10,110 nt of DNA from Chthonomonadales bacterium (lineage in GTDB: Bacteria; Armatimonadota; Chthonomonadetes; Chthonomonadales; Chthonomonadaceae). Both the position numbers and the translations under genes were made by a program. The stretch is from contig JBBQPO010000232.1 of NCBI GenBank assembly GCA_038217285.1, positions 1 to 10,110 on the forward strand, given 5' to 3'. The notes under the pieces are model-generated. The model saw only the letters and a list, made by a program, of their open reading frames with translations. It was not told where the DNA came from and did not search any database. Of the stretch, positions 4,857-9,633 are shown one piece after another (position 1 is the stretch's first letter; each line of letters opens with the position of its first letter).

Positions 4857-5531
4857 ATGTTTACGAATCACCTCACTTCGCCGGCTCATTCGGCCTGCAA
4901 ACTGGCCGTTCTGATCCCGCTGACTCTTGCGCTCTGGGCGGCTCCGCACCGGTCGCTTGCCCAGGGAGCGTCGGACGAGATGTCGCCATTTGGGCAGCGG
5001 CAAGACTCGCTGCATAGTCCGTTTACCGTTCGCCGGGGCGCAGCCGACAACTCGGCGCTCGGGCGTCAATTTCTGGGATTTTTCAACACCGGCGGCTACG
5101 TTCTGACCGGCAACGGGAAAAGCTCTGCACTGTTCGGATCCCCGAAGTTTTACAACAATGTCACCTTCTATTCGCATGCGAAGCGGGTGGGCGGCTTTGA
5201 GATTGCAGGGGGAGCGGAGACGATGCTGCTCAGTGACCACTTCGTCCCGTTTACCGGGGGCAACGAGTACGACCTGCTGGGGGGAAGCGCCAGTATCTCG
5301 ACGCCACGCGCGCTGCATCAGCCGCGCCTCTATGTAAGTGGGGGCCTCTTTTACGGACGTCTGCGCTCCGTAAACCAGGGGTTCGACCATTCGCAGTTCA
5401 TTCCGAGCGGCGCTATCGGCGTCGAGTACCCGCTCTCCGCCTACTTCAGTCTGGATGCCACCTATCGTGTCAGTCAGAATATCAAGGGCATCAATACCGA
5501 TGGGTTCAGTTTCAGCCTCCGCATCCACTAA
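4857..5531 (+). CDS. Probable outer-membrane beta-barrel protein
   Basis: Strong RBS AAAGGAG at 4845-4851. Signal-peptide-like KLAVLIPLTLALWAAPHRSLA-Q. Gly/aromatic-rich amphipathic strands (LYVSGGLFYG, SGAIGVEYPLSAYFSLDATYRV) and a terminal strand GFSFSLRIH. Confidence 0.65.
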   Translation: MFTNHLTSPAHSACKLAVLIPLTLALWAAPHRSLAQGASDEMSPFGQRQDSLHSPFTVRRGAADNSALGRQFLGFFNTGGYVLTGNGKSSALFGSPKFYNNVTFYSHAKRVGGFEIAGGAETMLLSDHFVPFTGGNEYDLLGGSASISTPRALHQPRLYVSGGLFYGRLRSVNQGFDHSQFIPSGAIGVEYPLSAYFSLDATYRVSQNIKGINTDGFSFSLRIH

Positions 5532-5559: not shown

Positions 5560-6357
5560 ATGCGCAAACGAGCGCTCTCGGGCCACAGGGCGCGACGTTT
5601 CTCACGGCGGCTGATGGTCTGGTCGGAGCGCCTGGCACTGGGCTCCGTTCTGCTCTGCTTGCTGGGAGTCGGAGGCATCCTCTGGGCCAGTGGCGGTGCG
5701 CGTGTGCTCGGCGCTGCCTTCGCGTTGGGCGGCCTCCTCGGTATCGGCTTTCATGTCCGCACGTTGTGGCAGACACGCGAAGCCCGCCTTCGCCTGCAGC
5801 GTGCTGCGGAACGCCGCCTCGAACTGCAAGCCGCCCGCCGGGACCGTGGGGTGAAGGAACGCCTGCGTCGCCAGACAGAGCAGGAGATCCGCGCCCGCGC
5901 CGCCGAGCGCCTGGAAGAGGCGCGGCGCGCTCAAAAGCAGGTGGCTGCCCGCACGACGCAGGAGCAGGCCAGTCAGCGCGTGGAGCGGGAACGCCGCGTC
6001 GAGCAGGAGGCGCTGCGCATCGCAGCCCTGTCGGACGCCGAGCTTCACCAGGAGATCCCTGGGCTACTGGCCCGACGCGGCTGGCAGCCTGAACCTGCGG
6101 ATAGCGAGTATACCGGTGATTTCCTGCTTCGATCTGAGGAAGGACTCGAGGTGTTGCGCTGCGTACCGGCAGGCAAAAAAGCCGGCAGTGTCGATGTGGC
6201 GGCCGTGGAGGCGTGGCGTGTACAGGCCAGAGCGGAACGCGCCTATCTCGTCGCCACCGCTGGCTTCCTACCCTCCGCCATAGATCGCCTCGGTGCGCTG
6301 CCCCTCACCCTCGTCGAACCCCATCTGCTCGCCCACTGGCAGGAACAGGCGGAGTAG
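5560..6357 (+). CDS. Membrane-anchored protein with coiled coil and C-terminal Mrr-like (PD-(D/E)xK) restriction-endonuclease-fold domain, probably inactive
   Basis: Two hydrophobic segments (aa ~25-65) and an R/E/Q/A-rich helical region (aa ~70-155). The C-terminal region has the Mrr-like pattern LL-x-RRGW, GDFLL, YLVATAGF-x-x-SA and LTLVE-x-x-LL. Confidence 0.65.
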   Translation: MRKRALSGHRARRFSRRLMVWSERLALGSVLLCLLGVGGILWASGGARVLGAAFALGGLLGIGFHVRTLWQTREARLRLQRAAERRLELQAARRDRGVKERLRRQTEQEIRARAAERLEEARRAQKQVAARTTQEQASQRVERERRVEQEALRIAALSDAELHQEIPGLLARRGWQPEPADSEYTGDFLLRSEEGLEVLRCVPAGKKAGSVDVAAVEAWRVQARAERAYLVATAGFLPSAIDRLGALPLTLVEPHLLAHWQEQAE

Positions 6358-6426: not shown

Positions 6427-7467
6427 ATGCATAGTGTGATCGATTTGAGAAGTGATACGGTAACGCGCCCGACGACTGCCATGCGAGCCGAGATGGCGGC
6501 CGCGGAGGTGGGGGACGATGTCTACGAAGACGACCCGACTGTCAACGCCCTGCAGAAGGAGGCCGCTCTTCTGATGGGCAAAGAGGCGGGCCTTTTTGTG
6601 CCGTCCGGGACGATGGGCAACGCGCTGGCCCTGATGACTCATACGCAGCCGGGCGATGAGGTGCTGATGGACTCCGAAGCCCACTCCATGCTCTACGAGG
6701 TCGGGCTGCCCGCGACCCTGGCGCATGTGCTGACCCGGCAGTTCCGCAGTACGGCCGGTGTGCCGGATGTGGAGGAGATCGCTGGCTATATCCACGGCAG
6801 CAACCTCCATGCCCCCGGCACGTCGCTGATCGTTCTGGAGAATACGCACAACCGGGCGGGAGGAACGGTCATTCCTCTGGAGGTGCATCGGGCCGTGCAG
6901 GAACTGGCGAAGGCGCACGGATTAGCGGTGCATCTGGACGGGGCGCGGCTGTTCAATGCGGCCATCGCCACCGGCATTCCGGCGGCGGATTTTGCGGCCT
7001 GCACGGACAGTGTGACCTTCTGCCTCTCGAAAGGACTGGGCTGCCCGGTCGGATCGGTGTTGTGCGGCACCCACGTTTTCGTCGAACGGGCGCGGCGTTT
7101 CCGCAAAATGCTCGGCGGCGGAATGCGACAGGCAGGAATCCTGGCGGCAGCGGGCCGGTACGCGTTGCAGAATAATATCGAGCGACTTGCGGAGGATCAT
7201 CGACACGCGCGCCGCCTGGCGGAAGGCATGGCCGCCTTGCCGGGAATCACGGTGGAGACGCGTGATACGCCCACGAATATGGTCTATTTCCGGACGCGGA
7301 TCCCTGCCGCGCAGTTCGCCGACATGCTGGCCGGACACGATATACTGTGCGGGGTCACTGGGCCTAACCGCATCCGCATGGTCACGCATCTCGACATCGA
7401 TTCCGAAGACATCGACCGCGCCGTTACGATCCTGCAAAAGACAGCGACAGAAATAGTGAGGCCGTGA
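6427..7467 (+). CDS. ltaE: Low-specificity L-threonine aldolase (PLP-dependent)
   Basis: Motifs [57 protein letters not shown] (PLP lysine), [29 protein letters not shown] at ~6409-6416 favours ATG 6427 over ATG 6391. Confidence 0.95.
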
Positions 7468-7518
7468 CAGCCGTTCCGGCAATGAACGCTCTCGTCCACG
7501 CCTGCGTAGAGATCTAAT

Positions 7519-9633
7519 ATGACCTGGCTTATCGGACTTATCGGACTGGGAACGGTGGCGGCGGGGCTGGCGCTCTGGACCGTGATGGCGGCGTGGTGCG
7601 CGGAACGAGAGTTTCCGCCATCAGGAGCCTTTATAGAGGTGGACGGCACCCGGCTGCACTATGTGCGGCGTGGCAGCGGCCCGCCTGTCGTGATGCTGCA
7701 TGGCAGCGATGGGTCCCTGCTGGATTTTGCCGAGACGGTGCTGGAGACGCTGAGTGGAGAGTTCGAAGTCGTGGCATTCGATCGGCCTGGGCATGGCTAT
7801 AGCGAGGGGCCTTATAATGCGGTCGCGACCCCAGAAGTGCAGATGCGCCTGCTGCACACAGCGATCTGCCGGCTTGGCCTGACTCGCCCACTGCTTGTCG
7901 GCCATTCTTGGAGCGGTCTGTTGGTGTTGATGACCGCGCTGGAGTTTCCGGAGGAGGCAGCCGGTTTGGTTCTGCTCGCCCCCTGGGTCGCTCCGCCCGC
8001 TTCCCCACCTTTTCCTCTGCTCTACGCGCCTCGTATTCCGCTGCTTGGGGAGCTCTCGCTCTGGACCGCACACCGGTTGGTAAAAGGCGCGATCATTCGC
8101 TACTACCTCCGACAGGCGTTTCTCCCGGACCCCGTTCCGCAAGCATACGCGCGGCAGTCGGTGATGTGCTGGCTGCGCTGGCCGCGTCAGGTCCAGGTGT
8201 TCTCTCGGGAGAATACGGCGGACCGGCCTGCGATGCGCGACTACAGCCCGCGCTACGGTCGGATTACTGTTCCGGTCGTGATCGTGGCCGGAGAGGCCGA
8301 CCGTGTGACCCCGACCGCAGAGCACGCGGAATGGCTGCATCGTGTGCTTCCCGATTCGGAGCTTGTACTGCTCCCGAATACAGGGCATCAACTGCTTCAT
8401 ACCCGTCCGGAGGCTGTCTGCGCGGCGGTGCAGCGTTGCGCGGAGGAGGCTCGACGGCGCGGCCTGTTGTCGGAAGCGCCAGCGGCGTTAACGGAGGGAG
8501 CCGACTGTCATTCGTCGCTGCAACGGGCGCGGGAGTTGGTGCTTCGTTACGGCTGGAATGCGATGTCGTATCAGATACTGAATCCCGCTATGGAACACTG
8601 GTTTTCGGGGGACGGTGATGCGGTCGTCGGCTATGTGCGGCGGGGTCGATACCGGGTGGTGGCGGGCGCACCTGTCTGCACGCAGGAGAGACTGGCGGCG
8701 GTCGTTGCTGAGTTTGAGGCGGCGGCGACCGAAGCGAGCGAAAGGGTCTGCTATTTCGGGGCGGCCAGTCGGCTGAGAGCGGTGCTGCAGGCGCTGCCCG
8801 CGCATGCGGAACTGGTCATCGGCGCACAGCCTGTCTGGAACCCGCAGCAGTGGTCCGCGCTGCTGAAGAAGCACTCTTCCCTGCGGGCGCAGATCAACCG
8901 GGCGCGTAATAAAGGCGTCGAGGTGGCGGAGTGGGGCGCGGAACAGGGGGAGGGGCGCGCGGCCTTGCAAGCCTGTCTGTCAGAATGGCTGGCGACTCGT
9001 CCGTTTCCGACCCTGCGCTTTCTGACGGAGCCGGTCGATCTGGGGGAGATACGGGATCGGCGGCTTTTCGTGGCCTCCAGTGGGGATGCCGTGGTCGGAT
9101 TTCTGATCGCGACGCCGGTTCCGGACCGCAATGGCTGGCTGATCGAGCAGATCGTACGCGGTCGGGCCGCTCCGAACGGCATGGCGGAACTGCTGGTCGG
9201 CACGGCGATGCAGGCGCTCGCAGAGGGTGGTGCGGAGTATGTGACGCTCGGTCTGGCGCCGCTCTCGCAGCGTGCCGGAATGGAAACCGATACAGAGGAG
9301 TCGTGGCTGCGTCTGCTGTTGACGGGGGTGCGCGCGCATGGCAAGCGCTTCTACAACTTCGACGGTCTCGACGCCTTCAAAGCAAAGTTCCGGCCCGACA
9401 GTTGGGAACCGCTCTACGCGATCTCCAACGAACGACATTTTTCGCTTCCGGCGCTCTATGCGATAGCGGCCGCGTTCAGCGAAGGCCAGCCCATTGTCGC
9501 CATGCTCCGCGCCATCCGCGATGCAGCGCGTCAGGAGTTCACCTGGTACCGACATCGCCATGACGCGGAATGTGACACGCAGGAATTCGAAGTCGGAGCA
9601 AGGAACCTTGGCCTACGTCGGAAGCAAAAGTGA
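7519..9633 (+). CDS. Fusion of N-terminally anchored alpha/beta hydrolase and aminoacyl-phosphatidylglycerol-synthase-like (MprF C-terminal / DUF2156) transferase domain
   Basis: aa 1-27 hydrophobic. Hydrolase motifs LHGSDG, FDRPGHGYS, GHS130WSG, GEAD261, GH290. From aa ~334: VVAGAPV, LRAQINRA, APNGMAELL, TLGLAPL and FYNFDGLDAFKAKFRP-x-x-WEPLY, which match the MprF/LPG-synthase catalytic domain. Single uninterrupted ORF. Confidence 0.85.
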   Translation: MTWLIGLIGLGTVAAGLALWTVMAAWCAEREFPPSGAFIEVDGTRLHYVRRGSGPPVVMLHGSDGSLLDFAETVLETLSGEFEVVAFDRPGHGYSEGPYNAVATPEVQMRLLHTAICRLGLTRPLLVGHSWSGLLVLMTALEFPEEAAGLVLLAPWVAPPASPPFPLLYAPRIPLLGELSLWTAHRLVKGAIIRYYLRQAFLPDPVPQAYARQSVMCWLRWPRQVQVFSRENTADRPAMRDYSPRYGRITVPVVIVAGEADRVTPTAEHAEWLHRVLPDSELVLLPNTGHQLLHTRPEAVCAAVQRCAEEARRRGLLSEAPAALTEGADCHSSLQRARELVLRYGWNAMSYQILNPAMEHWFSGDGDAVVGYVRRGRYRVVAGAPVCTQERLAAVVAEFEAAATEASERVCYFGAASRLRAVLQALPAHAELVIGAQPVWNPQQWSALLKKHSSLRAQINRARNKGVEVAEWGAEQGEGRAALQACLSEWLATRPFPTLRFLTEPVDLGEIRDRRLFVASSGDAVVGFLIATPVPDRNGWLIEQIVRGRAAPNGMAELLVGTAMQALAEGGAEYVTLGLAPLSQRAGMETDTEESWLRLLLTGVRAHGKRFYNFDGLDAFKAKFRPDSWEPLYAISNERHFSLPALYAIAAAFSEGQPIVAMLRAIRDAARQEFTWYRHRHDAECDTQEFEVGARNLGLRRKQK

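Follow-up and report, generated by a model that had tools for sequence, protein, structure and literature searches.

The 10,110-nt stretch of DNA analysed here (the window; contig JBBQPO010000232.1 of assembly GCA_038217285.1, from a soil or sediment bacterium of the order Chthonomonadales, family Chthonomonadaceae) carries at 7519-9633 (+) one open frame of 704 codons, which joins in a single polypeptide a serine alpha/beta hydrolase, anchored by one transmembrane (TM) helix, and a DUF2156 domain of the type found in the synthase part of MprF. The fusion is confirmed as real and conserved in its lineage. Moreover, the hydrolase family is clearly linked in a physical sense to DUF2156 genes that lack a flippase, a wider coupling that is new here and had not been described. 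We propose that the protein is a tRNA-dependent lipid aminoacyltransferase coupled to its own esterase, which would act as an eraser; we give this functional reading an even chance of being right. Papers are cited by PubMed Central identifier.

Two enzyme domains in one protein

A preliminary description of this DNA, made from the letters alone, had proposed an intact Ser130-Asp261-His290 hydrolase behind an N-terminal hydrophobic helix, fused in frame through a short linker to an MprF-C/DUF2156-like domain, and profile searches and structure prediction bear out this anatomy (Table 1). The hydrolase half matches the Pfam families Abhydrolase_6 (83 bits, residues 57-303), Abhydrolase_1 (79 bits) and Hydrolase_4 (62 bits). 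The C-terminal half matches PF09924 (LPG_synthase_C) at residues 338-635 with 150.2 bits, compared with a cut-off of 27.5, over profile positions 1-297 of 298. By these profile matches the protein is a member of both the DUF2156/LPG_synthase_C family and the serine alpha/beta hydrolases. Membership in the bifunctional MprF family is ruled out by the NCBIfam equivalog NF033480, which gives 79 bits against a cut-off of 600 and matches only at profile positions 524-837 of 841, as well as by the single TM helix and the lack of the flippase domain PF03706.

An AlphaFold2 (AF2) model built on 53 homologues (mean predicted local distance difference test score 87.9, predicted template modelling score 0.71) consists of the N-terminal helix, a hydrolase whose lid has four helices, a linker modelled with low confidence (about residues 314-330), the tandem-GNAT domain and a C-terminal helix at 658-696. 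Conservation was assessed across 53 aligned fused homologues of full length (45-92% identity), obtained from 74 two-domain proteins after removal of partial and near-duplicate ones. All 53 sequences retain Ser130, Asp261 and His290 as well as the HGS oxyanion region; the Ser-Asp-His triad is also kept in 85 of 85 hydrolase domains from the metagenome loci described below, and in the alignment with sequences from the Protein Data Bank (PDB) the position of Ser130 corresponds to the nucleophile Asp of a haloalkane dehalogenase.

The basic helix that lies between the GNAT folds reads SLRAQxNRARNKG; its residues S454, L455, R456, Q458, R461 and K465 do not vary among the 53 sequences. A tRNA-binding role was reported for the basic inter-GNAT helix (PMC7334510), and residues 453-465 of the window protein probably contact the tRNA acceptor stem. 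The motif RFYNFxGLxxFKxKF, invariant in the fused homologues, is common to the MprF synthase domains. The C-terminal half matches 5vrv, 7f47, 6lv0 and 4v36 in phmmer, and Foldseek agrees, aligning it with 5vrv, 4v36 and 6lv0 at target-normalised TM-scores of 0.82-0.84 and E-values from 8e-21 to 7e-19.

The N-terminal helix of the window protein reaches its Kyte-Doolittle (KD) maximum of 1.99 at residue 4. The juxtamembrane motif (R)RAExx(F/Y)PPxGxF that follows it in the fused protein is also present in free hydrolases, and many of these relatives have the TM helix together with the longer form RRAExxFPPxGxFVxVEGxRLHYV. The closest homologue carries 12 extra annotated N-terminal residues (MNALVHACVEVD), which were compared with window positions 7483-7521. 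Since the corresponding upstream ATG of the window lies in a different frame, which ends in a TAA just 5' of the ATG at 7519, and since the short start is common to most homologues, translation likely starts at 7519.

The fusion is real and conserved

Both domains are found in one protein in 74 of the 120 best homologues listed, down to 44% identity. Of 25 genomes from the same family, 13 hold a full-length, stop-free fused copy, and some of these 13 are assembled in one to five contigs. A 3734-nt contig of run X2, from another study, spans positions 7656-9557 with 40 substitutions and no gaps, and a contig of run X4, also from another study, spans 7400-9563 with bases missing only at 7515-7536; the junction is therefore bridged without insertions or deletions by independent contigs from two studies. 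An artefact, by which two genes were merged through misassembly or through a sequencing error in the linker, is refuted by these contigs, by the recurrence of the single open reading frame (ORF) in 13 genomes and by the approximately eight cluster representatives at 50% identity that share the same form, so that its probability is negligible. The preliminary description had named several outcomes that would speak against its proposal; those looked at turned out otherwise, for the homologues are not always separate genes, the linker holds neither a stop codon nor a misassembly, and the C-terminal half does match DUF2156.

The clustering of the fused type into about eight representatives at 50% identity indicates a narrow, lineage-specific family. 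Of the 80 loci kept from the species-representative genome collection, 16 are fused, and all 14 named ones belong to Chthonomonadaceae or Chthonomonadales (Armatimonadota). The order has two sister families, and none of their 16 genomes contains the fused gene. Three other runs (X2, X3 and X4) have contigs that track the window up to 9557-9563 and then diverge, and for this reason the last 25 or so codons are strain-specific. A 93%-identical homologue terminates in ...HRHDSEPTKP.

Table 1. Features of the fused gene; positions refer to the window, residues to the 704-aa protein
Feature	Position	Strand	Residues	Basis or remark
Whole gene, TM-anchored alpha/beta hydrolase fused to DUF2156	7519..9633	+	704 aa	Stop codon inside coordinates
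N-terminal transmembrane/juxtamembrane helix	7522..7611	+	2-31	AF2 helix; followed by family motif (R)RAExx(F/Y)PPxGxF
Alpha/beta hydrolase domain	7621..8457	+	35-313	Pfam, PDB sequence matches, Foldseek
Ser130, codon TCT, nucleophile in GHSWSG	7906..7908	+	130	Alignment conservation
Helical lid/cap insertion of hydrolase	7996..8268	+	~160-250	AF2 helices 166-172, 176-201, 208-217, 222-248
Asp261, codon GAC, triad acid	8299..8301	+	261	Alignment conservation
His290, codon CAT, triad base	8386..8388	+	290	Alignment conservation
Inter-domain linker, RGLLSEAPAALTEGADCHSS	8458..8508	+	314-330	Low model confidence, without hydrophobic segment
DUF2156/LPG_synthase_C tandem-GNAT domain	8509..9483	+	331-655	Pfam, phmmer, Foldseek
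Basic helix between the two GNAT folds, SSLRAQINRARNK	8875..8913	+	453-465	AF2 helix 453-464, invariant residues
RFYNFDGLDAFKAKF motif, common to solved MprF synthase domains	9346..9390	+		Alignments, invariant columns
Long C-terminal helix	9490..9606	+	658-696	AF2 model

The hydrolase family is linked to DUF2156 beyond this lineage

At E <= 0.001, 1867 shorter relatives of the hydrolase half were found, with identities of 37-47% for the best. Metagenome contigs were scanned with an alignment of free hydrolases only, 80 loci were kept, and example loci were confirmed with Pfam. DUF2156 is present at 42 of these 80 loci. It precedes the hydrolase in one ORF, as a reversed fusion, at 18 loci and in an adjacent gene at 21; adjacent genes in the other order occur at 1 locus, and the hydrolase-then-DUF2156 fusion, as in the window gene, at 2. 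As only 14 of the 38 loci without DUF2156 have at least 1.3 kb of upstream DNA, 42 of 56 informative loci are linked. Apart from the 2 of the window type, the linked DUF2156 genes belong to a second clade, scoring 150-190 bits on the DUF2156 profile versus about 610 for the window type. Independent fusions in both orders, together with adjacency, are strong evidence that the hydrolase family and flippase-less DUF2156 proteins share a pathway, and thus the functional link between the two halves that was supposed in the preliminary description is strengthened.

In uncultured bacteria the hydrolase family is a common partner of flippase-less DUF2156 proteins, and the pairing was found in Armatimonadota, in Acidobacteriota and in numerous contigs from soil metagenomes. 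Among 61 genomes sampled from the family to which an acidobacterial metagenome-assembled genome (MAG) of Pyrinomonadaceae belongs, two show the linkage. One has a 791-aa DUF2156-hydrolase ORF (locus L113, 5461-7836). In the other, G070 (locus L114, 6268-8466, minus strand), the hydrolase and then DUF2156 lie in the same frame, split by a single stop plus one further codon, an arrangement that may reflect a recent split, a read-through pair or an error of sequencing. A 301-genome sample of Acidobacteriota, searched with the reversed fusion and with only three candidates per genome scored, gave 3 matches.

Two loci (L129, 2631-3638 (+), and L132, 2600-3565 (+)) have a second hydrolase paralogue with a signal-peptide-like N-terminus directly upstream of a DUF2156-hydrolase fusion, and this points to activity of the hydrolase family on both membrane faces; loci L186 and L193 likewise hold two hydrolase copies. 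In two genomes from the phylum of a Bacillota-labelled MAG, the hydrolase forms the C-terminal half of ORFs of 665 and 684 aa (L199, 451-2445 (+), and L200, 394-2445 (+)), whose N-terminal approximately 350 residues have no Pfam match.

Origin of the DUF2156 half

The proteins most similar to the DUF2156 half stand free, are about 360-420 aa long and share 49-59% identity with it; at least 563 relatives of this half were found in one scan. The free forms span Gemmatimonadota, Acidobacteriota, Kapaibacteria, Ignavibacteria, Chloroflexota, other Armatimonadota and more. In a FastTree phylogeny of 184 DUF2156 domains rooted on canonical MprF, one clade holds 77 of the 81 fused domains, with three free forms nested within it; its sister clade consists of 96 free forms, and the remaining four fused domains branch deeper. 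Fused and free copies occur together in one genome (G018) and are therefore paralogues. Because the closest DUF2156 relatives are free-standing and without the hydrolase, the fusion in this lineage is a local acquisition.

No flippase accompanies the protein

The absence of a flippase from the protein and the window, noted in the preliminary description, holds on wider search. The protein has one TM helix, no flippase family was matched in Pfam by any of the 8 further ORFs of the window that were scanned, and the whole genome (6.2 Mb, 95.3% complete) gives 0 matches to the flippase domain PF03706, although absence from an incomplete genome is not proof. In the same genome the only match to PF09924 is the window gene itself, so no second DUF2156 was found.

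Predicted topology

Both domains are predicted to lie on the cytoplasmic side of the membrane, as had been proposed for an enzyme that uses aminoacyl-tRNA. Across 71 fused homologues the mean number of Lys plus Arg flanking the helix is 0.63 before it and 2.99 after it; the number after exceeds the number before in 61 of the 71, and in most of them the N-tail consists of 0-4 uncharged residues. According to the positive-inside rule, positively charged flanks of membrane helices remain in the cytoplasm. This charge bias, taken with the rule, predicts an external N-terminus and two cytoplasmic domains. The relatives appear soluble: no hydrophobic 19-residue window (KD >= 1.6) is present near the N-terminus of 41 of 44 free DUF2156 proteins, and most DUF-linked hydrolases likewise lack a TM or signal segment. 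In the reversed fusions no hydrophobic segment separates the two domains, and in 15 of 18 no TM-like segment was found anywhere.

The opposite orientation, in which the helix is a signal anchor, both domains are outside and the chemistry proceeds without cytoplasmic aminoacyl-tRNA, is very improbable in our estimate. The DUF2156 half is 49-59% identical to proteins without signal or TM segment, the basic inter-GNAT helix is invariant, and the charge bias and the reversed fusions also argue against it. Nevertheless, it has precedents in the catalytic domain of PlaF, reported to be periplasmic (PMC9132575), and in the MprF-like domain of LysX2, placed in the periplasm by PhoA/LacZ fusions (PMC8974105). 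It would also agree with the signal-peptide-like N-termini of some hydrolase-family members and with the weak charge bias of the window protein itself, which has a single Arg and two Glu after the helix, a net charge of -1.

Proposed function and its alternatives

We propose a single-pass membrane protein with two catalytic domains, both facing the cytoplasm. The tandem-GNAT DUF2156 domain, judging by its family, would transfer an amino acid from aminoacyl-tRNA to form an ester on the hydroxyl of an inner-leaflet lipid. The Ser130-Asp261-His290 hydrolase, whose family is a dedicated partner, in genomic terms, of DUF2156 enzymes without a flippase, would by analogy and from this linkage most probably cleave the aminoacyl ester again and so serve turnover, level control or proofreading. 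The membrane helix and hydrophobic lid of the hydrolase may in addition keep the synthase at the bilayer, a positioning role that fits the published poor lipid access of the isolated synthase domain: the soluble domain alone, lacking membrane positioning, was reported to be inefficient in cells (PMC8131360). The whole system would work without a flippase. Substrate specificity is not readable from sequence (PMC8913301), and no prediction can be made of which amino acid is used or which lipid accepts it.

The eraser role is the most economical reading because triad hydrolases next to a synthase have this role elsewhere. ErdH is a triad alpha/beta hydrolase encoded beside its synthase (PMC7334510), as are AcvB and VirJ (PMC13135905); AhyD, which is co-induced with mprF2, recycles lysyl-phosphatidylglycerol to phosphatidylglycerol (PMC6103681, PMC13123819); and ErdS and ErdH are active in one compartment (PMC13219428). 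The precedent for synthase/hydrolase pairs invoked in the preliminary description is thus found in these papers.

Several observations weigh against this reading. The window protein has no Pfam match at E <= 0.01 to PF07859 (the family of ErdH), to the VirJ family or to PF00756 ('Putative esterase'). The top-ranked structural match among alpha/beta hydrolases, PlaF, is a phospholipase A1 reported to be periplasmic. Unless regulated, a synthase working on the same membrane face as an esterase would spend aminoacyl-tRNA to no purpose. The free-standing DUF2156 relatives do not depend on this hydrolase: its profile was matched at only 1 of 64 free-DUF2156 loci (48 bits, 4.5 kb away, in a greedy ORF set), and a close hydrolase homologue was found in none of 5 genomes with a free DUF2156 gene, where the best identity is 27-34%. 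A TM-like N-terminus occurs in 25 of 34 hydrolases at loci without DUF2156 in the available DNA, versus 2 of 16 adjacent and 3 of 20 fused DUF-linked hydrolases, that is, most TM-anchored members stand alone. In the phylum of the Bacillota-labelled MAG (301 genomes, 39 with a hydrolase homologue at E <= 1e-35, 29 loci examined after one from an unpublished genome was set aside and 9 hits gave no locus), DUF2156 was found within 1.5 kb of the hydrolase homologue at 0 of 29 loci, which is weak evidence given the short flanks, and MprF was not among 22 flanking or long ORFs scanned there. In view of the stand-alone TM members and of these 29 loci, the ancestral substrate of the hydrolase family may be an ordinary membrane lipid. 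Of the fused writer and eraser suggested in the preliminary description, the fusion and linkage of the two domains stand, but the implied old pairing does not.

An alternative is that the hydrolase is needed for the final product and not for its destruction. It could be a PlaF-like phospholipase A that makes the acceptor, a lysolipid or diacylglycerol, or a transacylase that passes the aminoacyl group through Ser130 to a second acceptor, as was proposed for PesT. We consider such a helper role possible, with a minor but substantial probability. PesT and its partner synthase are both required for the formation of alanyl-phosphatidylglycerol, by a mechanism that was left open (PMC6103681). Against the helper role, PesT is the exception among characterised hydrolase partners in the papers cited, all others being erasers. 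The N-terminal half is built like PlaF, a TM helix followed by a hydrolase, and 6i8w ranks first among alpha/beta hydrolases in Foldseek (E 2e-16, 324 columns, 22% identity); however, by target-normalised TM-score the core fold is no nearer to PlaF (0.69) than to many esterases (0.79-0.85). The lid is hydrophobic in many homologues: in 26 of 71 fused ones the top 19-residue window beyond residue 80 starts at 164-178, with KD 1.6-2.36, whereas in the window protein this stretch (about 165-190), strongly hydrophobic in many homologues, stays below KD 1.67. Some homologues, unlike the window protein, match PF00756 weakly (28-33 bits, cut-off 22). Tight fusion in both domain orders suits the hand-over of a substrate, and the linkage data fit a helper or transacylase role as well as they fit an eraser, but the free-standing DUF2156 relatives need no such helper.

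Unlikely, in our view, is an acceptor other than a lipid, where DUF2156 would aminoacylate a small molecule, a cell-wall precursor or a natural-product intermediate in the way of VlmA or FemX, and the hydrolase would process the product. The nearest solved relatives are all lipid synthases, the window protein has a membrane anchor, and the lid is hydrophobic in many homologues. Further arguments against it are a relative from the same family in which DUF2156 is fused to a membrane fatty-acid desaturase and the lack of a conserved biosynthetic neighborhood, the largest neighbor cluster being a CLC channel (7 of 71 loci). Such chemistry would find parallels in DUF2156 enzymes outside lipid metabolism, which do exist, the literature including work on azoxy natural products. 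The clade-2 DUF2156-hydrolase proteins, which appear soluble, and the limits on reading specificity from sequence (PMC8913301) also leave room for it.

Comparison with known systems

Compared with MprF and related aminoacyl-phosphatidylglycerol synthases (7DUW/6LV0 of R. tropici, 4V36 of B. licheniformis, 4V34/4V35 of P. aeruginosa, and 5VRV), the window protein has a complete synthase domain, with the tandem GNAT folds, the basic inter-fold helix and the RFYNFxGLxxFKxKF motif. It differs in the absence of the multi-helix flippase, its membrane part being a single helix and the hydrolase, and has only 20-25% identity to the solved domains.

By analogy, the window protein would work most like the ErdS/ErdH and AhyD/MprF2 pairs, from which it differs as one polypeptide that is flippase-less and predicted to face the cytoplasm entirely. 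ErdS and ErdH of Dikarya fungi also combine a flippase-less DUF2156 synthase with a Ser-Asp-His hydrolase on the cytoplasmic side (a location predicted in the present case), but they are divergent neighbor genes, ErdH belongs to PF07859 and the acceptor is ergosterol. In Enterococcus (AhyD with MprF2/RakPGS) and in Proteobacteria (AcvB, VirJ and PA0919 with LpiA/MprF) a hydrolase is, as here, genetically coupled to a synthase. AcvB and VirJ share the alpha/beta hydrolase fold and catalytic triad, and AhyD is also an alpha/beta hydrolase. In contrast to all of these separately encoded enzymes, the hydrolase described here is fused, predicted to be cytoplasmic and without a Pfam VirJ match. The site of action is outside the cytoplasmic membrane for PA0919 and AcvB, whereas that of AhyD was called undefined (PMC6103681).

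PesT of Corynebacterium glutamicum, an operon partner that alters the product of the alanyl-diacylglycerol synthase, is a further case of a putative esterase tied to a DUF2156 enzyme; PesT is a separate gene, and the PF00756 family is matched weakly by some of our homologues and not by the window protein. PlaF of P. aeruginosa (6I8W) resembles the N-terminal half in its TM/juxtamembrane helix, lidded hydrolase and triad (S137/D258/H286 versus S130/D261/H290), but at 22% identity; it is reported to be periplasmic, lacks a transferase domain and has ordinary glycerophospholipids as substrates. The LysX2 protein (Rv1619) of M. tuberculosis also carries an MprF-like domain on an atypical membrane part for which no flippase function was demonstrated; it differs from the window protein by its four predicted TM segments, by its extracytoplasmic catalytic domain and by the lack of a hydrolase.

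The preliminary description did not recognise the architecture as characterised, and we agree. In a literature search for DUF2156, LPG_synthase_C or PF09924, and for aminoacyl-phosphatidylglycerol synthases with or fused to a hydrolase, we found no description of the hydrolase-DUF2156 architecture; the search covered main texts only, and an earlier mention is possible.

Genomic neighborhood

No conserved operon partners were found, and neighbors vary by genus. Of the seven CLC-channel loci mentioned above, 2 are beside fused genes. Free DUF2156 genes of relatives occur in the arrangement ArsR - CLC chloride channel - (MscS) - DUF2156 (L020, 7267-10312 (-); L025, 502-5250 (-); L019, 5140-8269; L036, 4380-5996 (+)). 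The CLC-channel neighborhood may point to acid or osmotic stress. In a genome of the same family, a 663-aa ORF (locus L106, 1370-3358 (+)) combines DUF2156 (residues 36-330, 137 bits) with the desaturase domain PF00487 (residues 410-632, 109 bits), and is a further case of a flippase-less DUF2156 joined to a lipid-acting membrane enzyme, here a membrane fatty-acid desaturase.

Within the window, the ORF at 5560-6357 (+) (265 aa) has no Pfam match, and the ORF at 4857-5531 (+) (224 aa) has a sub-threshold match to an outer-membrane beta-barrel, which recurs at 26.8 bits in locus L012 of the same genus. Downstream of the fused gene the G+C content falls to 0.58, and the ORF at 9494-9811 matches no Pfam family. 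Promoter and terminator scans of the DNA gave chance-level results only.

Significance

Work on lipid aminoacylation has centred almost exclusively on MprF: the aminoacylated lipid is produced on the inner side, flipped to the outer side and trimmed there by a separate hydrolase. The window gene represents a different solution, with no flippase and with a synthase and a serine hydrolase tied together on what is predicted to be the same face of the membrane. It is not a one-off, since the hydrolase family is joined to DUF2156 in at least two domain orders and also as adjacent genes. A testable assignment of function thus becomes available for the 1867 hydrolase relatives and for at least 563 DUF2156 relatives. 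The protein also offers a compact, single-polypeptide system for the long-open question posed by PesT, namely whether a partner hydrolase erases, edits or helps. Tentatively, and with some doubt, we suggest that the hydrolase and the flippase-less DUF2156 protein could form an unrecognised, widespread module of the cytoplasmic face whose two sites cooperate, the transferase loading the lipid and Ser130 relaying or editing the aminoacyl group. If so, the module would imply an undescribed lipid class or the first cis-proofreading step in lipid aminoacylation, and the Chthonomonadales protein would be its membrane-anchored, single-polypeptide form.

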